Assembly (NCBI GenBank): GCA_040766655.1
Contig: JAXGQB010000009.1
Location: forward strand, 114,685-178,684
Direction of reading: 5' to 3'
From: Anaerolineae bacterium
GTDB lineage: Bacteria; Chloroflexota; Anaerolineae; CG2-30-64-16
Length of the DNA stretch: 64,000 nucleotides
Each line of letters begins with the position of its first letter. Within the stretch, counting starts at the first letter, position 1. The notes under the pieces were generated by a model that saw only the letters and a list, made by a program, of their open reading frames with translations, did no database searches and was not told the origin of the DNA. The position numbers and the translations under genes are program-made. This document shows positions 34,582 to 43,645 of this stretch, in pieces.

Positions 34582-37500
34582 CTAGCGAAGCGACCCTTCG
34601 TCGCTCGCCGGCGCCACAGCCTCCTCGCGTGTGTCCGCCGCGCTTGCAGCAGACACCGAAGCTCCCGAACCATCCGCATCCCGCAGGATGGAGGGGATGT
34701 AAGTATCAACGCGATCGCGAATCTGGATCCCGTCGACGAAACTCCACGTGTTGAAGAGGTTATCGTGACGATTCCAACTCGCGAAGGAAATCTGCACGGT
34801 CTGGCCGGCATAAGGGCTGAGATCGATGCTCGCCAGGTGCCAGCCCGTGTCGTACCGCGTGCCGTACGCGTTCGTCGGATTGCCTGCCCGCAGCAGCAAC
34901 GCGATCTCGTTCCCCTGCGCGTCGTATAGCGTGACGTCGAGCGTGTCGACGTAGCGCTCCAGGCGCTGGCTGTACATCACATCGTACGTCAAAACCCGGT
35001 ACCAGAACCGTAGATGCGGCCTGCGCACCTGGTCGAGCGCCGGGATGCTCACCGTCTGGCTGATGGTCGCGCTGCCCACCGGCACGGTGCCCGGCGCCTG
35101 CAGGCTGGGTCCGTAATCCTCGCTGCCCAGGCGTGCGGCCAGGATCGACGTGTTGCCCGGCCCGGCAGTGGGCGCCACGGCCATGAAGAGCGAGCCGCCG
35201 GTCATCCAGTCGCTTAAGGTGCCGGTGTCGAACCCGCCGTTCTGAATCGGTTCCACCAGGACCGCTGCCGTCGCACCGTTTGGCTGGCGGTTTCCGGCCC
35301 GATCTGTCGCGAACACACGGAAGAAGTAGGTATGGCTGCGCTGACCGTCGAACTGCGCCGATACCTGTTTGGTCTTCCGCAGCCAGTCCATCCAAGCGCC
35401 GTCGTACCCGTCCCGCACCTGCACATCATAGGTTTCGACGCCGGACCCCGCCCCGTCGGTCGCCGACCAGCTCACGTCGAAACGCGTGCGCGTCTGATAC
35501 CCGCTCAGCCCCGAGAAGCTGGCCAGCGGGGGCGTCCGATCGATGGAAAGGTCGTAAACGTGCGTCGCCTCGACATTGCCCGCGACATCCACCGCCCAGA
35601 TACGCACGGTATGCTGGCCATCCTCGCCGTACGTGAACGCCGTGCCCGTTTCGACCGGACCATCATCGATCTGATATCGAATCGCGGCCACGCCGCTGCC
35701 CGAGTCTGTGGCGGACATGCTGAACGCGACCGGTCCGATGTACCAGCCGTTCAACCCTGAAGCGGCGGTGAGCGTGATGACGGTGACGGGAGAAGAGCTA
35801 TCATACCAGATGGCATCGGTTATGGCAACTGCCGTGTGCTCATCGGCGTTACCCGCCCCATCCACCAGCCACACATACGCAGTGAACCGCCCCTCGCCCG
35901 GCGCCCTGACCCCCGTGATCTCGGTGGCCCCAACGTAGAACTCGCCATCCAGATCGTTCGCGGGCGGCGCGCCGAACTTGACGTACGCACCGGCAATGCC
36001 CGATTGATCGAGGACCGGTGGCCACTCCAGGCGGAAGTTGTTAAAGGCGGACCAGCCCTGCGGATAGGAGCGAACGCCGTCAGGTGGCGGCGGCGCGTCG
36101 AGGTCGATCCTCACTGTCAGCGCCTGCACCGCCTCCGAATTGCCCGCCACATCGGACGCGAAGTATTCCACCGCGTGCTTGTCGGACTGCGAAAGCGCCA
36201 ACGTTGCCGTGGCCCTGCTCACCCACTGCCACTCCCCGCCGTTGATACGGTAGTAGAGCGACGCGACGCCGGACGCCGTGTCGCCCGCGGTCAGGGTTAC
36301 GGTCACGGGCGAGCGATACCAGCCGTTCGTCCCGGCGAGCCCTTCCACCTCGGCCACGGTGACGGGCGGCGTCGCGTCGTAGCGCAGGGTGGGCCCGGCC
36401 ACCGCCGTGGTATGGTCCGCATTGCCCGCTGCATCCCGCAGCCACAGATACAAACGCTGGGCACCCTCGATCGGAACGGCCAACGCATCGATTCGATCGG
36501 TCGCGGTGATCACCGTGCCATCGCCAGGGCCCGCCGGCGGCTCGCCGAACTTGTAGTACGCGGCCGATACGCCGCTCAAGTCTTCCGGTGCGCTCCATGC
36601 CACGGTGAACGCATTCGTGCTGCTCCACCCGCTGGGGCTGGCCTGGAGTCCGATCGGCGCGCCGGGCGCGACCGCGTCCAGCTTGATCTGCTCCTCGACC
36701 GGCGCTTCCTCGTTGCCCGCGACATCGGTAGACGCATAGGCGATCTCGTGGATCGCGTTGGCGGGCAGCGGGAACTGGATGCCCGACTCCCACGAGGCCG
36801 CGCCGATGCGGAACCGTGTCGACAGGACGCCCGACACGGGGTCGACGGGCTGCAGGGTGACGGTCACCGGCGATCGATACCAGCCATTGTCGCCCGCCAC
36901 GCCGTCGATCAGCGTGCTGGTCAGCGGCGCGGTGCCGTCCAGGTGCGCCTCGATCGTGTTGACCGCGGACCGCAGCCCAGCCGCGTCCACGGCGTAGCTC
37001 TCGATGCGGTAGGAACCATCGGCGGCCAACGTGAAGCCGGCGCCCTGCTGCCAGGGGCCATCGTTCAGCCGGTAGTAGCCGGTCGCTCCGCCGGAGACAG
37101 CATCCGTGACGGCCAGGGTGTAGGTCACTGGGGCCGTATACCAACCCGTCGCAGCCGGCAATCGATCCGCCGTGAGCGTCGCCACCGGCGGCGTCAGGTC
37201 GATCCCGAAGCGAAGCTCCTTCGCGGCCTCGAGGTTGCCTGCCTTGTCGCGCGCCTGGTAGAGCAGCCTGTGAGTCCCCTCGGCGCCCACCGTGAGGCCG
37301 GTGCTCACCGCCCAGGCCGCGCCATCCAACTGGGTCCACACGGCCGGTGGGAGCGTCTCATCCACGGGCAGATCCGTCGCAGTGAAATCCAACCGGACGC
37401 TATTCGTATACCAACCCGTAGCGGGAAGGGGCGGCGTCACCTGCACGCTGCTCACCGGCAAGGTGCCGTCGTACCAGAAGACCCCCGGATCTCCCGTCCT

Positions 37501-38256
37501 CAGGGTGTGATCGACGTTGCCGGCGCCGTCCACCAGCCAGACCCAGATGTCGTGTGTCCCGTCGCGCGGGACCGAGATGTTCGAGATGGTGTTGGTGGTG
37601 GCGACGTAGATGCCGTCATCCACCGTGGCCGGGAGTGCGTTGAGCTTGTAGTAGGCGCCGGCAATGCCCGACAGGTCCTCGGGATTGCGCCAGCTCTCCG
37701 AGAAGCTGTTGACGTTGCTCCACCGCCGGGCCGGCGTGCCAGTGAGCAGCGTTGGCGGATCGGGCGGCGTGGTGTCGACCTTGATCGTGTAGGCGGGGCT
37801 GATCGCCTCTTCGCCTGACGCCTCGGCCGTCCGGTAGCGGATCAGGTTTTGGGTCGCTGAGTCAGGGAACGCCAGGCCGATCACGACCAGCTCGCGCACG
37901 GACGTCTGCGGCGAGCTCACGGAGAGGCCTGCGGTGGACCAGTCGGACCACGTCGCGCCGCCATCGACGCTCGTGGCGTACGCGTCGCGGCCATCGATGA
38001 ATCCGTCCGGCGCAGTAGCCGTGACGAGGCTCGTGGCCGGCACGTCTGCCACCCAGCCGGCAGGCGCAAACCCGCTCCACGTCACCGCCTGCGGGCGCTG
38101 CACGGCCGCCACATCGGCGGGCGTCCAGGCGGCTGCGCGCGGCGCGGCCACGCCCAACACGGCGATAAAAAGCACCAGAAGGAGGACAGGACGATGCAAT
38201 GCTGCACAGCGCAGGCCGCCACGAGCGGCAGCATCAGGTCTGGAGAACGGGGACAT
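34582..38256 (-). CDS. Large secreted repeat-rich surface protein (about 1224 aa) built from alternating about 95-aa modules (AYYKF...WLxDxAGNxDH type and GWY...SGV...YRxNDGxW OmpL47/Big-like type)
   Basis: Start MSPFSRP (cat at 38254-38256, GAGGTGA RBS) with a signal peptide. Three A-type and five B-type modules were counted by eye. Then an FN3-like module and a about 300-aa C-terminal domain. Confidence 0.7.
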   Translation of the reverse strand: MSPFSRPDAAARGGLRCAALHRPVLLLVLFIAVLGVAAPRAAAWTPADVAAVQRPQAVTWSGFAPAGWVADVPATSLVTATAPDGFIDGRDAYATSVDGGATWSDWSTAGLSVSSPQTSVRELVVIGLAFPDSATQNLIRYRTAEASGEEAISPAYTIKVDTTPPDPPTLLTGTPARRWSNVNSFSESWRNPEDLSGIAGAYYKLNALPATVDDGIYVATTNTISNISVPRDGTHDIWVWLVDGAGNVDHTLRTGDPGVFWYDGTLPVSSVQVTPPLPATGWYTNSVRLDFTATDLPVDETLPPAVWTQLDGAAWAVSTGLTVGAEGTHRLLYQARDKAGNLEAAKELRFGIDLTPPVATLTADRLPAATGWYTAPVTYTLAVTDAVSGGATGYYRLNDGPWQQGAGFTLAADGSYRIESYAVDAAGLRSAVNTIEAHLDGTAPLTSTLIDGVAGDNGWYRSPVTVTLQPVDPVSGVLSTRFRIGAASWESGIQFPLPANAIHEIAYASTDVAGNEEAPVEEQIKLDAVAPGAPIGLQASPSGWSSTNAFTVAWSAPEDLSGVSAAYYKFGEPPAGPGDGTVITATDRIDALAVPIEGAQRLYLWLRDAAGNADHTTAVAGPTLRYDATPPVTVAEVEGLAGTNGWYRSPVTVTLTAGDTASGVASLYYRINGGEWQWVSRATATLALSQSDKHAVEYFASDVAGNSEAVQALTVRIDLDAPPPPDGVRSYPQGWSAFNNFRLEWPPVLDQSGIAGAYVKFGAPPANDLDGEFYVGATEITGVRAPGEGRFTAYVWLVDGAGNADEHTAVAITDAIWYDSSSPVTVITLTAASGLNGWYIGPVAFSMSATDSGSGVAAIRYQIDDGPVETGTAFTYGEDGQHTVRIWAVDVAGNVEATHVYDLSIDRTPPLASFSGLSGYQTRTRFDVSWSATDGAGSGVETYDVQVRDGYDGAWMDWLRKTKQVSAQFDGQRSHTYFFRVFATDRAGNRQPNGATAAVLVEPIQNGGFDTGTLSDWMTGGSLFMAVAPTAGPGNTSILAARLGSEDYGPSLQAPGTVPVGSATISQTVSIPALDQVRRPHLRFWYRVLTYDVMYSQRLERYVDTLDVTLYDAQGNEIALLLRAGNPTNAYGTRYDTGWHLASIDLSPYAGQTVQISFASWNRHDNLFNTWSFVDGIQIRDRVDTYIPSILRDADGSGASVSAASAADTREEAVAPASDEGSLR

Positions 38257-38358
38257 ACGTTTCGTCACCTCAGGAGCAACGGCTGGGGATGGGCAGGCAC
38301 TCCAGCTTGCAGACGCCGCACAGGCAGCCTCCGAAGCGCCCTCCATGGCTGCGCCCGG

Positions 38359-39048
38359 CTATCCGCCAGCTTCAAACTTGTAGCCGAGCCCGCGCGCGGT
38401 CACGATGTAACGGGGGGCGTCAGGGTCGGGCTCCAGCTTCGAGCGCAGTCGCCGCACGTAGACGGCCACCTGGTTGGAGTATCCTTCGTAATCGTAACCC
38501 CAAACGGTGCTGAGAAGCTGTTCGTGCGTCAGGACGCGGCCGTTGTTCCGCACCAGGGTATGGAGCAATCGGAACTCGATGGGCGTCAGTTCCACCGTGC
38601 GGGCAGTGGGCAGGGTGACGGTATTGTTGACGGGGTCCAGGCGGAATCCCTCGACGCTCAGCTGGCTCTGCGGCTCACCGAAAGTGAAGGCCTCTGCGCG
38701 GCGAAGCACGGCGCGCACCCGCGCCAACAGTTCCGAAGGCTCGAACGGCTTCGCAAGGTAATCATCTGCACCGAGATCGAGGCCGTGGACCCGGTCGCTC
38801 GTCTCGCCCTTGGCTGAGAGAATCAGGATGGGCAGATTGGTCGTCCGCCGCAGCGTACGGGTGACCTCCCAACCGTCCATCCCCGGCATCATCACGTCGA
38901 GCACCAGCAGGTCCGGCGTCTTCTCGTCGATCATGCGCAATGCCTCCTGCCCGTTATCGGCCGTGAATACCGTGTAGCCCTCCTCCCGCAGGAGAAAGGC
39001 GGTCATCTTCAGGCTTGGGCGGTCGTCGTCGACGATCAGGATGCGCAT
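38359..39048 (-). CDS. OmpR-family response regulator (REC + winged-helix)
   Basis: MRILIVDDDRPSL...DLLVLDVMMPGMDGWEV...wHTH YIVTARGLGYKF. Start at the cat at 39046-39048. The track ORF extends to 39231. Confidence 0.9.
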   Translation of the reverse strand: MRILIVDDDRPSLKMTAFLLREEGYTVFTADNGQEALRMIDEKTPDLLVLDVMMPGMDGWEVTRTLRRTTNLPILILSAKGETSDRVHGLDLGADDYLAKPFEPSELLARVRAVLRRAEAFTFGEPQSQLSVEGFRLDPVNNTVTLPTARTVELTPIEFRLLHTLVRNNGRVLTHEQLLSTVWGYDYEGYSNQVAVYVRRLRSKLEPDPDAPRYIVTARGLGYKFEAGG

Positions 39049-39105
39049 TGCGCCGGGCTTCTCCTCGGCCGCGTGCTGCTGCGGCCGGTGTGATTTCAGC
39101 GTTTC

Positions 39106-39150
39106 AGTATACCATGATGTGGAGGCAGGAACAAACGGCTTGCGCGTTTG
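39106..39150 (-). promoter_or_regulatory. Candidate promoter of the response-regulator operon: -35 TTGTTC / 17 nt / extended -10 TGgTATACT (minus strand), overlapped by palindrome CAAACG-n7-CGTTTG
   Basis: Plus-strand text agtatacca (39106-39114), gaacaa (39129-39134) and caaacggcttgcgcgtttg (39132-39150). Confidence 0.35.
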
Positions 39151-39219
39151 ACTGCGGCTCGCAACCGGAATTTCGGACATGAACGGATAGTGATTCCTTT
39201 CGAGGCGTCGCGAGCAGCT

Positions 39220-39247
39220 TACGAACGCCACATGAAAGGACCATGAA
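39220..39247. promoter_or_regulatory. Three direct repeats TACGAA/CATGAA/CATGAA phased at exactly 11 bp (candidate OmpR-family binding array) upstream of the regulator promoter
   Basis: Hexamers at 39220, 39231 and 39242, with a fourth CATGAA at 39178. The 11-bp helical phasing is typical of winged-helix regulator sites. Confidence 0.3.
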
Positions 39248-39318: not shown

Positions 39319-40536
39319 TCACAGCGCCTGGTCCAGATCCGCGATGATGTCCGCAGGGTCCTCGATCCCGATCGAGAGACGGATCAGCCCGTCCCCGATG
39401 CCGATCTGCCGGCGCGTCTCGGGCTCCAGCGCGCGGTGCGACGACATGGCCGGATAGAGCGCCAGCGAGTACACGTCGCCCAGCGTGGTGGCCGGCCGGA
39501 CCAGGCGCAGCCGGTCCATGAAACGAAAGACCTCGGGCTGGCCGCCGTCGCGCAGATCGAAGCTGGCCATGCCGCCGAACAAGGCGCCGCCGAACTGCTG
39601 GCGGGCGAGGTCATGCTGCGGATGAGCGGGCAGGCCGGGATAGTTGACCTTGGCGACCCTGTCGTCCGCGGCCAGCCATGCGGCCACCTCCGCCGCGTTG
39701 CGGCAATGCCGCTCCATGCGCAGGGGGAAGGTCTTGAGTCCCCGGTGCGCCAGCCACGCCTCATCGGGCGCGAGGTTGGCCCCCAGCAGCTTGTTCACCT
39801 CGTACAAGGCGGTGCGGTGCGCGCGATCGCGCACCACCACCACCCCGCCCAACACGTCGCCGTGGCCGCCCAGGTACTTGGTGGCGCTGTGCACCACGTA
39901 ATCGGCGCCGAGGTCCAGCGGCCGGCAGAGCATGGGCGTGGCGAACGTGTTGTCCACGACCAGGGCCGCGCCGGCGCCATGGGCCAGGTCGGCCAGGTGT
40001 GCGAGGTCCGCCACCTTGAGCAGCGGATTCGACATCGTCTCGACCAGCAGGGCCGCGGGCCGCGCCTGCTGGAGCGCGGCCTCAACCGCGGGCAGGTCGG
40101 CCACGTCGACGAACGTGGCGGACACGCCCTGGGTCGCCAGCAGCTGTCGCAGCAGCGCGTAGGTCGCGCCGTAGATGTCGTGGGCGCAGACCACCGCTGA
40201 GCCCGCGCGGCAGCCCGCGGCCAACAGCGCGCCGTGGATGGCCGCCATGCCCGAGCTGTAGGCCAGCGCCGCGCTGCCGCCCTCCAGTGCCGCGACCGCG
40301 GCCTCGAACGCGGTGACCGTGGGGTTCCCGTACCGCGCATAGACCGGGTTCTGCGACGCGCCCGCGAAGACCGCGTCCAGGTCGGCGGTGTCCGCGTACG
40401 TGTATGCCACGCTGTGATGGACCGGCGTCACCACCGGCTGGTACGCACGCCCCGCATCCGGGCCGGCCACGGGAACGATCTGCGCTGCCTGTTCGCCCGC
40501 ATGCACCGCCACGGTGAAGATGGATTGCTCTGCCAT
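39319..40536 (-). CDS. Cys/Met-metabolism PLP-dependent enzyme (cystathionine gamma-synthase/beta-lyase/methionine gamma-lyase family)
   Basis: Start MAEQSIF. PLP-lysine region VVHSATKYLGGHGDVLGGVVV. Trans-sulfuration family fold. Confidence 0.85.
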   Translation of the reverse strand: MAEQSIFTVAVHAGEQAAQIVPVAGPDAGRAYQPVVTPVHHSVAYTYADTADLDAVFAGASQNPVYARYGNPTVTAFEAAVAALEGGSAALAYSSGMAAIHGALLAAGCRAGSAVVCAHDIYGATYALLRQLLATQGVSATFVDVADLPAVEAALQQARPAALLVETMSNPLLKVADLAHLADLAHGAGAALVVDNTFATPMLCRPLDLGADYVVHSATKYLGGHGDVLGGVVVVRDRAHRTALYEVNKLLGANLAPDEAWLAHRGLKTFPLRMERHCRNAAEVAAWLAADDRVAKVNYPGLPAHPQHDLARQQFGGALFGGMASFDLRDGGQPEVFRFMDRLRLVRPATTLGDVYSLALYPAMSSHRALEPETRRQIGIGDGLIRLSIGIEDPADIIADLDQAL

Positions 40537-40612
40537 TCGCTGCTCCTGTCGACGAAACTTCCGGTATTTTACCGCATCTCGGGCAAAGGATACGAGAAAC
40601 GCGCGAAATCGC

Positions 40613-40641
40613 TTGACACCAGGAATCACATATCGTACAAT
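40613..40641 (+). promoter_or_regulatory. Perfect-consensus sigma70-type promoter TTGACA-17-TACAAT, followed by SD AAGGAGG (40671-40677)
   Basis: Read directly: TTGACA 40613-18, 17-nt spacer, TACAAT 40636-41, AAGGAGG 6 nt before the ATG at 40683. It is AT-rich in a 70% GC background. Confidence 0.6.
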
Positions 40642-40682
40642 TATCATGCTAGCAATACTCAATCGACATCAAGGAGGCATCA

Positions 40683-41354
40683 ATGCGCACATGGCGAGCT
40701 GCATCGCTACTAGCGGTGATTCTGCTCCTGGTTTCGGCCGGCCTCGTGGTCGCTGCAACCACGACCACCCTGCTGGGCTACCAGATCGACTTTCTCGGCT
40801 TCACGGATAATGGCAATAACACCAGCACCTGGACATACGCTGTCACGTCTGACGGCGATGAAGAGAAAGGACTGAGCCATTGGTCCCTGGACATCAATGC
40901 GTGCTTCGGGCCCATTGTCGCCCCGGCGAACAGCACCCATTTCACCACGAAGACCGGTGCGGAGTTCGGCTGCGGCACGACCTACAACTGTGAAGTGGCG
41001 CAGTGCACCGTCGTGCAAGGCATCGATCCGACCACGGGCGTCAACGGCATCAAGTTCGAGAACTGCAGCCCGCAGCTCAGCAAGGACGGCCCGGAGCCCC
41101 GCACGCAGATCTTCCAGTTCACCGTCGAGGGTGTGCCGAGCCAGGGTGGTCCCGTGACCGTCGCCGTCAAGCCCGGCCAGGGGACAGCCTCCGGCACGCT
41201 CATCGGTCCGGCATGCACCCCCAACTCGGTCGCCCTGCGCGACTTCGAGGCCAGCAGCGATGCGGCCACACCGAAGCCCTACACGCTGCTCGCCGGCGCC
41301 CTGGTGTTCGGACTGGCAGGCATCGTCCTGAGCTGGCGCTCGGCTCGCGGATAG
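40683..41354 (+). CDS. Secreted Cys-rich protein (6 Cys) with PEP-CTERM-like tripartite C-terminal sorting signal (PKP - TM - RSAR)
   Basis: Signal peptide MRTWRAASLLAVILLLVSAGLVVAA. C-terminus ...ATPKPYTLLAGALVFGLAGIVLSWRSARG (compare PEP-CTERM PEPxTLxLLGxGLAGL...RRR). Confidence 0.7.
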   Translation: MRTWRAASLLAVILLLVSAGLVVAATTTTLLGYQIDFLGFTDNGNNTSTWTYAVTSDGDEEKGLSHWSLDINACFGPIVAPANSTHFTTKTGAEFGCGTTYNCEVAQCTVVQGIDPTTGVNGIKFENCSPQLSKDGPEPRTQIFQFTVEGVPSQGGPVTVAVKPGQGTASGTLIGPACTPNSVALRDFEASSDAATPKPYTLLAGALVFGLAGIVLSWRSARG

Positions 41355-41363
41355 GGAGTCATC

Positions 41364-41510
41364 ATGCAAACACAGACTGATGAACAGAGGCAGATTAGCA
41401 GCAGACCCTACGAGGCTCCGGCCATCATCTACGAGAGCGACCTCGAGGTACGGGCGGGCAGTCCGTTCGGCCTTCCGGACCCACTCGACCTGACCGGTAC
41501 AGGGGAGTAG
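41364..41510 (+). CDS. Translationally coupled 48-aa small ORF with lasso-leader-like YEAPxII motif (MQTQTDEQRQISSRPYEAPAIIYESDLEVRAGSPFGLPDPLDLTGTGE)
   Basis: GGGAG RBS 5 nt before ATG 41364, which is 10 nt after the upstream stop. Followed by a terminator at 41544-41580. Below the 60-aa cutoff of the ORF track. Confidence 0.4.
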   Translation: MQTQTDEQRQISSRPYEAPAIIYESDLEVRAGSPFGLPDPLDLTGTGE

Positions 41511-41543
41511 CCCGGCACTGCGCCGCCATCCGGCACCAGATTG

Positions 41544-41580
41544 AAGAGCTTCGGGATTTGCAGGCCCGAAGCTCTTTCTT
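41544..41580 (+). terminator. Rho-independent terminator (12-bp stem aagagcttcggg/cccgaagctctt, 9-nt loop, TCTT tail)
   Basis: Read directly. It closes the bicistronic unit 40683-41510. Confidence 0.55.
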
Positions 41581-41610
41581 ATGCCCCACCCACGCGCCCC
41601 AGCTCCCTGC

Positions 41611-41663
41611 GCTAACGCAACGCTAACGTCCGATTTGCGTCATGCTAACGCTTCGGGTATAGA
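41611..41663 (+). promoter_or_regulatory. htpG upstream region: three GCTAACG direct repeats (41611, 41622, 41644) and candidate promoter TTGCGT-17-TATAGA
   Basis: Repeats read directly. Neither CIRCE (TTAGCACTC-N9-GAGTGCTAA) nor HAIR consensus is present. Confidence 0.3.
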
Positions 41664-41779
41664 CTTTATCGAAACGACCAGTACGTCAAACCCAGGCCAC
41701 CGCGGGTTGGGGCGGCATGCGATCGCGCGCCAGCGCCCTGCGCTCCGCTGCGGTGGCCAGCTACCAGGAGGCAATCACC

Positions 41780-43645
41780 ATGACCGACCAGGCGCCTGCG
41801 GCCGAGACCCTCGAGTTTCGGGCCGAAGTCCAACAGCTGCTCCACATCCTGGCCCATTCGCTGTACACCGAACGCGAGATCTTCCTGCGCGAGCTCATCT
41901 CGAACGCATCGGACGCGCTGCATCGTGTGCAGTTCGAGTTGCTCACCAACCGCGACGTCGTCGACCCCGACGCCGAGCTGGCCGTACGCATCGAATCGGA
42001 CCCCGACGCACACACGCTGACGATCACGGACACCGGGATCGGCATGACGCGCGACGAGCTGATCGAGAACCTGGGCACGATCGCACACTCGGGTGCGCTC
42101 GCGTTCCTGCAGAAGATCGGCGAGAGGCAGAAGCCGGTGGACCTCATCGGGCAGTTCGGCGTGGGGTTCTACTCGGTCTTCATGGTGGCCGACGAGGTGG
42201 CGGTCACCTCGCGCTCGTATCAGCCCGACGCCGCCGCATGGCGCTGGACCTCGCGCGGGGACAGCCGGTTCGACCTGGCGCCGGCCGAGAAGACGTCGCG
42301 CGGCACAGAGATCCTGATCCGACTAAAGGAAGATGCGTACGACTTCACCGCGGGGTGGCGCCTCAGCGGCATCGTGCGCAAGCACTCGGATTACGTGTCG
42401 TTCCCCGTGTACGTCGAGGGCGAGGTGGCGAACCGGCAGACCGCATTGTGGCGCAAGCCCCCGCGCGAGGTAGAGGACGAGGAATACGCCGCTTTCTACC
42501 GGCAGCTGACGCTCGACCCCGAGCCGCCCCTGTTGCACACGCACCTGGTCACGGACGCGCCGGTCGATATCCGCAGCATCCTCTACGTGCCGCGCAGGCT
42601 GGATCGCGGCGTCTTGAGCCTGCGGTCCGATTACGGCATCCAACTCTACTCGCGCAAGGTGCTCATCCAGGCGCACAACAAGGAGCTGCTGCCCGAGCAT
42701 CTCCGCTTCGTCGAGGGCGTGGTCGACTCCGAGGACATCCCCCTGAACGTGTCGCGCGAGACGGTGCAGAGCAACCGGACGCTGCGCGCGATCCAGAAGG
42801 TGCTCGCGGGCCGGGTCACCAAGGTGCTTGCGGAGTTCGCAACGGAGAAGCCGGAAGAGTACGCCGGGTTCTGGAAAGACATGGGCGTATTCATCAAGCA
42901 GGGCGTCGCCTCGGGCGAGCAGGAGGACCTGCCCGAGCTGCTGCGCTTCCCCTCCACCCGGTCGGACGGCCAGCTCGTCTCCCTGGCCGAGTACGTGGCG
43001 CGCATGGTGGACGGGCAGGGCGAGATCTACTACCTGCTCGGCAGCGATCCCGCCTCCATCGCAGCCAGCCCACACCTCGATGCATTCAAGTCGCGCGGCA
43101 TCGAGGTGCTGCTCATGGGCGATCCGTTCGACGGGTACATGGTGCAGGCGCTGCCAGAGTACAAGGACAAGCCGCTGAAGAACGTCGACGACCCCGGGCT
43201 GGCGCTGCCAGGGCAGCCGCAGGAGGAGCCGGCCGCGGCGCCCAGCCTGCCCGACGACGAGTGGGCCGCGGTGGCCGCGCGCTTCAAGACCGTGTTGGGC
43301 GACCGGGTCACCGAGGTGCGCGAGTCGCAGCTGCTCACCGGCAGCCCGGCGCGGCTGGTGTCGCCGCAGGCCGGCTTCGAGCGGGAGATGCAGCGCCTGC
43401 GCCACCTGCTGGAGCAGGACTATCACATCCCGCCAAAGATCCTGGAGCTCAACCGCCGCCACCCGCTGACGCGCAACCTGGCGTCGCTCATCGCAGATCG
43501 ACCCGCGGATGCCGTCATCGACGCGTCGATCGAGCTGCTGTTCGAGAACCTGCTGCTGCTGGAGGGGCTGCACCCGAACCCCGCGACCCTGGCCCCGCGC
43601 ATCCAGGCCCTGCTGGAGCAGGCGACACGGGGACCGCGAGGATAG
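41780..43645 (+). CDS. htpG: Molecular chaperone HtpG (Hsp90 family)
   Basis: Start MTDQAPAAETLEF with an AGGAGG RBS. Hsp90 N-domain signature IFLRELISNASDALHRV plus the full-length middle and C domains. Confidence 0.95.
   Translation: MTDQAPAAETLEFRAEVQQLLHILAHSLYTEREIFLRELISNASDALHRVQFELLTNRDVVDPDAELAVRIESDPDAHTLTITDTGIGMTRDELIENLGTIAHSGALAFLQKIGERQKPVDLIGQFGVGFYSVFMVADEVAVTSRSYQPDAAAWRWTSRGDSRFDLAPAEKTSRGTEILIRLKEDAYDFTAGWRLSGIVRKHSDYVSFPVYVEGEVANRQTALWRKPPREVEDEEYAAFYRQLTLDPEPPLLHTHLVTDAPVDIRSILYVPRRLDRGVLSLRSDYGIQLYSRKVLIQAHNKELLPEHLRFVEGVVDSEDIPLNVSRETVQSNRTLRAIQKVLAGRVTKVLAEFATEKPEEYAGFWKDMGVFIKQGVASGEQEDLPELLRFPSTRSDGQLVSLAEYVARMVDGQGEIYYLLGSDPASIAASPHLDAFKSRGIEVLLMGDPFDGYMVQALPEYKDKPLKNVDDPGLALPGQPQEEPAAAPSLPDDEWAAVAARFKTVLGDRVTEVRESQLLTGSPARLVSPQAGFEREMQRLRHLLEQDYHIPPKILELNRRHPLTRNLASLIADRPADAVIDASIELLFENLLLLEGLHPNPATLAPRIQALLEQATRGPRG

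Follow-up and report, generated by a model that had tools for sequence, protein, structure and literature searches.

Strands of the form Y-x-x-P-x-[IV] are the kind of element bound by PqqD-type domains, and the type IX secretion system (T9SS) has a C25-family peptidase, PorU, as its sortase. The SynChlorMet (SCM) cassette, in which a PqqD-like protein is also encoded, has to our knowledge no characterized function. With help from the PqqD-type protein BsfB1, the Bradymonas HPr-kinase homologue BsfK phosphorylates Ser3 of a precursor that has a YxxPxL motif and Ile at position -2 (PMC10368454). Val or Ile at position -2 recurs in phosphorylated lasso precursors (PMC10368454), and paeninodin-type kinases phosphorylate the C-terminal Ser of their precursor (PMC8498205). 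Here, we describe a gene pair in a 64-kb stretch of DNA from an Anaerolineae bacterium (contig JAXGQB010000009.1, positions 114,685 to 178,684; 64,000 nucleotides), referred to as the window. Members of the Anaerolineae abound in sludge, sediments, and bioreactors, and almost none have been cultured. We directly documented the gene pair, its conservation, the peptide family to which the second gene belongs, the gene neighborhoods of that family, the fold of a kinase-like neighbor, and a recurrent motif in the tail of the first gene product. We propose, with a probability of about 0.5, that one promoter serves two genes, which would encode an anchored beta-sandwich surface protein and an orphan precursor-like peptide matured in trans by a PqqD chaperone and a kinase of the phosphoenolpyruvate carboxykinase (PEPCK)/HprK fold.

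The gene pair and the peptide family

The unit of promoter, two open reading frames (ORFs), and hairpin is real, well beyond what chance would produce. It recurs in the related locus L002, whose 223-amino-acid (aa) protein is 75% identical and which keeps the promoter, both ribosome-binding sites, both ORFs, and the hairpin stem. A more distant relative, L005, encodes a homologue of the 223-aa protein (f223) that is 55% identical, and public gene callers have called both ORFs on many public contigs. The features of the window are as follows.

40613..40641, plus strand: sigma-70-type promoter, TTGACA-17 nt-TACAAT; both hexamers identical in L002
40671..40677, plus strand: Shine-Dalgarno sequence AAGGAGG, 5 nt 5' of the ATG at 40683; kept in L002, GGGAGG in L005
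40683..41354, plus strand: gene for the 223-aa exported, C-terminally anchored beta-sandwich surface protein (f223)
40683..40757, plus strand: signal peptide, residues 1 to about 25, with basic n-region and hydrophobic core read from the sequence and predicted cleavage between VVA and A
41220..41255, plus strand: conserved motif PNSVALRDFEAS, consensus P[NT][AS]VxLxxFxA, 17 residues upstream of PKP, in a low-confidence linker of the structural model
41271..41279, plus strand: PKP, once proposed as a PEP-like motif, not conserved (PQP, PAP, G, NGMG, and others in homologues)
41280..41351, plus strand: transmembrane (TM) helix YTLLAGALVFGLAGIVLSW with basic tail RSARG; helix 200-222 in the model
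41354..41358, plus strand: GGGAG ribosome-binding site of the small ORF, overlapping the TAG stop of the 223-aa ORF; kept in L002
41364..41510, plus strand: gene for the 48-aa precursor-like peptide, an orphan copy from a family of about 90 peptides under purifying selection
41409..41426, plus strand: YEAPAI, putative recognition motif for a PqqD-type RiPP (ribosomally synthesized and posttranslationally modified peptide) recognition element (RRE); Y16 and P19 invariant
41451..41465, plus strand: R-A-G-[S/T]-P junction, putative leader/core boundary with candidate phospho-acceptor Ser33
41543..41577, plus strand: GC-rich hairpin with a 13-bp stem (41543-41555 / 41565-41577) followed by UCUU, likely a terminator

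The promoter hexamers (TTGACA at 40613-40618 and TACAAT at 40636-40641, with a 17-nt spacer) agree with the consensus at 11 of 12 positions. They form the sole site of their kind in 40300-41900, for which shuffled sequences predict 0.3. An earlier, sequence-only reading of this DNA had described the promoter and AAGGAGG as perfect consensus elements; both elements are present, and the wording requires correction for the -10 hexamer, which carries the one mismatch. The same reading placed a GGGAG ribosome-binding site between the two ORFs, which we recovered, and gave the gap from the 223-aa stop to the next gene as 10 nt, which is in fact 9 nt (ATG at 41364). The hairpin folds at -21.6 kcal/mol (z = -3.9), and none of 200 shuffles folded equally well. 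Its U-tract is weak in the window (UCUU), which explains why a simple terminator scan missed it; in L002, the stem is kept, the loop has changed, and the tract is UUUUUU. The hairpin is likely to be the terminator with which the unit had been said to close. In the window and in L002, the 223-codon and 48-codon ORFs stand in one frame, separated by TAG plus three codons, such that readthrough would fuse them. This shared frame is probably coincidental, because the two ORFs overlap out of frame in L005.

From its pattern of substitution, the small ORF is a conserved gene. Of the differences from L002, the 10 nonsynonymous ones are confined to residues 5-20 and residue 48, and residues 21-47 show three synonymous changes and no nonsynonymous ones. 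L005 encodes a 55-aa version that keeps YE.P....ESDLEVRAGSP.G.PD.LDL, and its gene overlaps the upstream stop as ATGA. A profile search returned 72 peptide clusters of 39-89 residues. When one genome per species was scanned, 26 loci were found, all in Anaerolineae/Chloroflexota metagenome-assembled genomes, with two to four copies in 6 genomes, and a scan of metagenomes yielded 80 further peptide loci. Across 87 distinct peptides, Y16, P19, R30, A31, and G32 are invariant, with a constant Tyr-to-Arg spacing of 14, and position 33 is occupied by Ser (n = 78) or Thr (n = 9). The residue preceding the invariant Arg is Val in 71 peptides, Thr in 10, Ala in 5, and Ile in 1. Conservation extends to I/V at position 21, and the N terminus before Tyr16 is variable in both length and sequence. 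No Pfam or NCBIfam model matches the 48-aa peptide. To judge by these comparisons, the family is under purifying selection and is found in Anaerolineae/Chloroflexota only. Conservation of the small ORF and co-conservation of the pair, which had been put forward as checks on the sequence-only reading, were both borne out: the pair is kept in L002, in L005, and on many public contigs. A gene of 48 codons can escape gene-calling and annotation pipelines, and the present result recovers one.

A divergent clade of the family (…YEAPAIIYE..I[TS]TRAGSP…DPADLFG) is encoded just downstream of a ribonucleotide reductase gene (L039:5984-10174, L108, L115, L118, and L124). The reductase gene of L039 contains an intein.

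The surface protein and its C-terminal signal

The f223 protein has no match among Pfam or NCBIfam models. It has 17 close homologues, and a profile search extends its relatives to 928 clusters at 50% identity. Its AlphaFold2 model is an all-beta fold with a predicted local distance difference test (pLDDT) score above 90 for residues 27-180, and structure comparison returned no significant match in the PDB. The signal peptide and six Cys residues previously ascribed to the protein both stand: the former, read from the sequence, coincides with a modeled helix at residues 3-19, and the latter lie at positions 74, 97, 103, 108, 128, and 178, with C74 invariant and C178 nearly invariant among homologues. 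In other taxa, the f223 domain occurs in adhesin-like, multidomain proteins, fused to SdrD_B, SpaA, DUF11, LTD, CBM, or C25 and ending in IPTL-CTERM or T9SS tails.

The tail of f223 consists, in order, of PNSVALRDFEAS, a low-confidence linker, the TM helix, and RSARG. The same layout (P[NT][AS]VxLxxFxA, 8-15 residues, a TM helix, and an Arg-rich tail) ends otherwise unrelated proteins, which represent at least 10 unrelated families once their tails are removed. The strict pattern is present in 47 of the 162 sequences matched by the f223 profile and a looser pattern in many more. When curated C-terminal models were run on ten such tails, none reached its cutoff; nine tails had some match to a curated model, through the generic TM-plus-basic part alone, and the tail of f223 itself matched none of these models. 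Full-text literature searches with the motif strings and for Chloroflexi sorting signals returned nothing relevant. The tails compared here therefore suggest a new three-part C-terminal signal, typical of Chloroflexota and covered by neither a curated model nor the literature searched.

We rejected a PEP-CTERM/exosortase signal, to which the tail had been likened with PKP in place of PEP. The TM helix and RSARG do fit a PEP-CTERM-type end, a feature generic to many sorting signals. However, PKP is not conserved, the conserved motif is the one lying 17 residues upstream, and the PEP-CTERM model TIGR02595 has no match in f223 even at E <= 10. No exosortase was seen in the Pfam annotations of the +/-10-kb flanks of relatives' loci.

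In a variant of the tail, P[NT]AVTLxEFRAxP is followed by an amphipathic segment of the FDLAAWLxxLLRRL type that replaces the TM helix (L024:6541-9885, L027:469-2781, L035:9154-9825, L068, L099, L100, L102, L104, and L109). These variants tend to precede peptides ending in …DLTDPAGLWKK, which hints that tail type may covary with the C terminus of the peptide.

The signal and the peptide gene are linked in the genome. Signal-bearing genes make up about 7% of the ORFs taken as genes in the fetched loci (31 of 448), and within the window, the f223 gene alone carries the signal. The signal is carried by the gene immediately preceding the peptide gene, or a kinase-PqqD-peptide block, at 14 of about 24 genome loci (binomial P of about 6e-11 at the 7% background and about 1e-6 at 15%). 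The 15% background is deliberately high; islands of surface-protein genes inflate the local background. The pattern was then examined in metagenome contigs that had been fetched after it was noticed and had played no part in the idea: a signal-bearing gene lies upstream at about 14 of 35 informative new loci (P of about 3e-8, or 3e-4 at 15%). These counts depend in part on manual judgment of the tails, and loci of related genomes are only partly independent of each other. The association runs in one direction: a signal-bearing gene precedes most peptide genes, but most signal-bearing genes have no peptide gene after them, as is the case for the f223 homologues of L001, L007, and L009. Protein and peptide are nevertheless paired far more often than chance would allow, and so the secreted-protein/peptide pair suggested for this locus is not a coincidence.

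Proposed maturation and competing explanations

We clustered the ORFs neighboring the peptide genes across loci and built hidden Markov models (HMMs) from the clusters. A PqqD-type protein and a 275-aa protein adjoin the peptide in 12-13 genome loci, about half of the total, and the same kinase-like/PqqD/peptide arrangement was seen on metagenome contigs. Most of these loci have the 275-aa gene first, then PqqD, then the peptide gene. In L032 and L033, the 275-aa gene follows the peptide and PqqD lies 4.8 kb off; in L040, both genes are found within 1.5 kb on the opposite strand. The PqqD protein (about 91 aa) matches PF05402 (E = 2e-18). The 275-aa family has an invariant GxSGxGKxT, with G138, S140, G141, G143, K144, T146, and D160 invariant and D159 nearly so. 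Its sequence gave sub-threshold matches to ScmC and HprK-related models and, against the PDB, P-loop matches alone. Among its 194 database homologues, the few with a source name are called "hypothetical." The AlphaFold2 model of one member (pLDDT of 92.7) found ATP-dependent PEPCK as its best PDB match by Foldseek (E = 7e-8), followed by HPr kinase/phosphatase (E = 7e-5 to 4e-4). Because of these fold matches, we assign the modeled 275-aa protein to the PEPCK/HPr-kinase fold, with catalysis as a prediction.

Peptidases recur as well. Signal-peptide-bearing C25 peptidases are encoded within 10 kb of the peptide in about 10 loci, often as pairs flanking a membrane protein (f174), and small relatives of S24/S26-like signal peptidases lie near the peptide in 5 loci. 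Other recurring neighbors are DUF4012 and TMEM260-like proteins, along with many surface proteins that have GEVED, SdrD_B, DUF11, LTD, or CBM96 domains. A module of a long C25, a small S24/S26-like protein, PqqD (in some cases), f174, and a second C25 is found at L026:3111-10381, L032:11088-18841, L037:10355-19614, and L009:1-8769. Its C25 proteins have signal peptides and lack a PNAV-type tail. From its gene content, the module looks like a processing machine. In L009 (5480-10735), a distant f223 homologue lies beside a full SCM-type cassette composed of PqqD, a radical S-adenosylmethionine (SAM) protein, a 54-aa Cys-rich peptide (…RYEKPTLTQV…C…C…C…), ScmC, an S24/S26-like protein, and an OmpR-type response regulator.

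Under the proposed mechanism, the first gene product would be exported by Sec and held in the membrane by its motif P[NT][AS]VxLxxFxA, spacer, TM helix, and basic tail. The second would be an orphan copy of an Anaerolineae-specific precursor-like peptide, with residues 1-30 serving as leader. Reading YEAPAI as a leader motif is reasonable, since the family has an invariant core motif and its members adjoin PqqD-type chaperones. Such a chaperone may bind the Y-E-x-P-x-[IV] strand and present the peptide to the ATP-dependent, ScmC-like enzyme of the PEPCK/HPr-kinase fold. The most plausible acceptor for the presumed phosphorylation is the invariant Ser/Thr33 in R-A-G-[S/T]-P. Cleavage at or beside R30-A31-G32 would then release an acidic, proline-rich product of about 17 residues (AGSPFGLPDPLDLTGTGE or one residue shorter). 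Candidate proteases are the colocated C25 (gingipain-family) and S26-like peptidases. Either an Arg-directed C25 peptidase or an S26-like enzyme could make the cut, the latter after A31, where Ala at -1 and V/T/A/I at -3 would satisfy the signal-peptidase rule. With A31 as the first core residue, V29 would be at position -2, Ser33 would be Ser3, and Asp39 would be Asp9. The enzymes would act in trans in the source genome, because none of them is encoded within the window. The family has the properties of a generic RRE-dependent RiPP precursor at 12-13 genome loci and at metagenome loci, and maturation of the window copy is presumed.

Several observations weigh against this mechanism. Conservation of the putative core nearly equals that of the leader, an unusual feature for natural-product precursors. 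The peptide lacks a signal peptide and the kinase needs ATP, whereas C25- and S26-type peptidases are normally extracytoplasmic, so the compartments do not readily agree. By tblastn and locus-derived HMMs, the 64-kb window holds no PqqD, kinase, C25, f174, or radical-SAM homologue, and its peptide copy is therefore an orphan. The closest species-representative genome showed just this one peptide copy, and the clade ending in DPADLFG has no PqqD, kinase-like, or tail-bearing gene adjacent in the contigs inspected. In favor of the mechanism, however, exactly one copy is linked to kinase and PqqD, and the others are orphans, in 5 of 6 multicopy genomes.

The peptide could instead be a dedicated partner of the upstream C-terminal signal rather than primarily a diffusible product, acting as cosubstrate, acceptor, or regulator in Chloroflexota sorting. 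Paired C25, an S26-like peptidase, and f174 would run the sorting, and PqqD and the kinase would prepare the peptide. Such a role would fit the upstream signal at the genome and metagenome loci counted above, carried by proteins of at least 10 unrelated families, and the fact that the one signal-bearing gene of the window precedes the peptide. It would also fit the recurring C25–S26-like–PqqD–f174–C25 module and the precedent of PorU, and the conservation of the "core" is more in keeping with a fixed partner than with a variable antibiotic. Yet the case is one of association, which drops to P values of about 1e-6 and 3e-4 under the island-inflated background; many signal genes, including the three f223 homologues named above, lack the peptide; the peptide has no export signal; and no chemistry is known for such a role. 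We consider this explanation doubtful. A broader version, in which the pair would be the smallest visible piece of a Chloroflexota sorting system not yet described, strikes us as distinctly unlikely. Here, tail proteins would be the cargo, paired C25, S26-like, and f174 proteins the machinery, and the modified peptide a cosubstrate (acceptor or linker) or regulator. It would explain why the peptide gene stands directly after cargo genes of unrelated families. A sortase role for the Anaerolineae C25 proteins is pure conjecture.

The 48-aa product might also be a true lasso precursor, with a B2 protease and an asparagine-synthetase-like cyclase encoded elsewhere and A31, G32, or S33 closed onto Asp39. 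The sequence-only reading had likened YEAPxI to a lasso leader. What survives of this is the conserved Y-E-x-P-x-[IV], at a fixed distance from the junction, and the adjoining PqqD in relatives; the assignment to lasso peptides does not, as no cyclase or protease recurs. The lasso precursor pattern (leader motif and D/E at ring positions 7-9) fits 74-77 of the 87 family members, with cores of 16-20 residues. A canonical Y(-17) spacing would set the core start at Ser/Thr33, and a start at A31 would give Val/Thr(-2), Ser3, and Asp9. Starts at A31, G32, and S33 place Asp39 at position 9, 8, and 7, respectively, which agrees with the core of Gly1 and Asp8 read earlier. The canonical Thr at -2 is indeed absent from the window copy, as had been objected, and the objection loses force given that Val, Thr, Ala, and Ile all occur there within the family. 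The neighboring PqqD proteins match a lasso B1 model best among NCBIfam models (lasso_PqqD_Bac, 1.6e-11), and HPr-kinase homologues are known lasso tailoring enzymes, with Ile/Val(-2) in phosphorylated lasso precursors (PMC10368454).

Several results count against a lasso peptide. The PqqD match is far below the model cutoff (44 versus 80 bits), and 10-13 of the 87 peptides lack an acidic residue at positions 7-9. Thr would be residue 1 in 9 peptides, and we know of no lasso peptide that starts with Thr. Neither a transglutaminase-like leader protease nor an asparagine-synthetase-like cyclase was found in L020 (inspected gene by gene), in five loci with precomputed Pfam annotations (L005, L009, L037, L039, and L040), or in the Pfam annotations of the window's +/-10 kb, where none had been seen before. 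Nor does an Asn_synthase or transglutaminase-type family appear among the neighbor families with at least two members from 93 neighbor ORFs, a tally that covers the 25 most frequent of 82 Pfam families and that a single cyclase in one locus could escape. The proposed search for a PqqD-like RRE together with such a protease, made in the window and at relatives' loci, thus found the RRE beside relatives' precursors and not in the window, and the protease recurring nowhere. Because the two class-defining enzymes are absent from all loci inspected, the lasso reading fails; we rejected membership, retained lasso peptides as the closest mechanistic parallel to the proposed chaperone and kinase steps, and regard a true lasso precursor as highly improbable. 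As for a chance, nonfunctional ORF kept through nucleic acid conservation of the operon's 3' region, the shortness of 48 codons and the lack of a Pfam or NCBIfam match speak for it, and this explanation can be set aside, given that the same peptide is encoded in many unrelated genomic contexts by differing DNA, that residues 21-47 change only synonymously, that the ORF has its own ribosome-binding site, and that the region matches no Rfam family.

Genomic setting and comparison with known systems

Upstream of the pair lie a divergently transcribed gene for a pyridoxal phosphate-dependent enzyme of Cys/Met metabolism and genes for an OmpR-type response regulator (38359-39231, minus strand) and a 1,254-aa Big_13 protein; HtpG is encoded downstream. 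OmpR-type regulators also occur in L040 and L009. The 1,254-aa protein (34582-38346, minus strand; two genes upstream of the pair) is secreted and built of repeated Big_13/PKD-like modules, without a C-terminal TM anchor or a PNAV-type motif. Downstream of the hairpin, and ahead of a promoter-like TTGCGT-17-TATAGA that precedes htpG, GCTAACG(C) is repeated three times (41611, 41622, and 41644; block 41611-41651). Nearly identical in L002, the block is not an inverted repeat of the CIRCE type; a heat-shock regulator might use it as its operator. Shuffled sequences fold as well as the htpG 5' leader (z = -0.2), and neither the leader nor the pair region has an Rfam match to a structured RNA. ORF calls in these high-GC loci were made mechanically. 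The longest htpG ORF starts at 41717, and public gene calls start at the equivalent of 41780 (ATGACCGACCAG), right after GGAGG; the mechanical 642-aa ORF is therefore overextended by 21 codons.

If the proposed mechanism holds, Anaerolineae carry a widespread ribosomal-peptide system that uses the chaperone-plus-kinase logic of phosphorylated lasso peptides without the lasso enzymes, and its products would constitute a new class of linear modified peptide, possibly phosphorylated. A recurrent Chloroflexota C-terminal signal, moreover, occurs on many unrelated surface proteins, outside curated models and without a known sorting enzyme. Of greatest interest is the unexplained linkage between this anchoring signal and an RRE-dependent peptide; it offers a testable handle on how the poorly understood envelopes of Chloroflexota are built. 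Each element resembles a known kind, and the sequences point to a combination that is undescribed in the literature searched. Searches for the peptide family and its gene neighborhood (PqqD with C25; RRE with kinase, Chloroflexi) returned nothing relevant in that literature, Pfam, or NCBIfam. As far as sequence comparison can tell, the unit is a member of none of three systems that it resembles, namely, the phosphorylated lasso submodule, SynChlorMet, and the known three-part sorting signals.

The phosphorylated lasso submodule (paeninodin PadeK; BsfK-BsfB1-BsfA) shares with the Anaerolineae loci a Y-x-x-P-x-[LIV] leader and a PqqD protein beside an enzyme of the HPr-kinase superfamily (PMC10368454, PMC8498205). 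Both also have Val/Ile/Thr at -2 and a hydroxyl residue near the junction (Ser3 in BsfA; Ser33, which would be residue 3 if the core starts at A31). In contrast, C25 and S26-like peptidases recur at the inspected loci in place of a cyclase or B2, the kinase-like protein resembles ScmC more than it does the lasso kinases, and genes for tail-anchored surface proteins are linked to the peptide gene, with the enzymes absent from the window.

SynChlorMet (ScmC, TIGR04249; ScmD, TIGR04248; radical-SAM ScmE/F) likewise has ScmC-like and PqqD-like proteins side by side near a small peptide. The likeness is greatest at L009, which has a distant f223 homologue together with PqqD, radical SAM, a Cys-rich YEKP peptide, and ScmC. 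Elsewhere, the Anaerolineae peptide loci lack radical SAM, and their peptide has no Cys. Scores against the SynChlorMet models are far below cutoff (38.8 bits versus 125 for ScmC and 40.4 versus 100 for ScmD), and we rejected membership on the basis of these scores and the lack of radical SAM in the Anaerolineae peptide loci. Full-text searches of the literature found no mention of SynChlorMet.

The C25 proteins invite comparison with PorU, as signal-peptide-bearing C25 proteins of Anaerolineae cluster with proteins that have a common C-terminal signal, although the Chloroflexota loci studied here lack T9SS C-terminal domains. Like f223, the substrates of three-part sorting signals (PEP-CTERM/exosortase, LPXTG/sortase, MYXO-CTERM, and IPTL-CTERM, among others) are unrelated secreted proteins that end in a short motif, a TM helix, and a basic extreme C terminus. 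The signal described here differs from these in its motif, P[NT][AS]VxLxxFxA, in the placement of that motif 8-15 residues before the helix, in reaching the cutoff of no curated model, and in the variants that carry an amphipathic FDLAAWLxxLLRR segment instead of a TM helix. A further likeness to substrates of IPTL-CTERM and T9SS sorting lies in the protein itself, since the f223 beta-sandwich domain bears such tails in other phyla.

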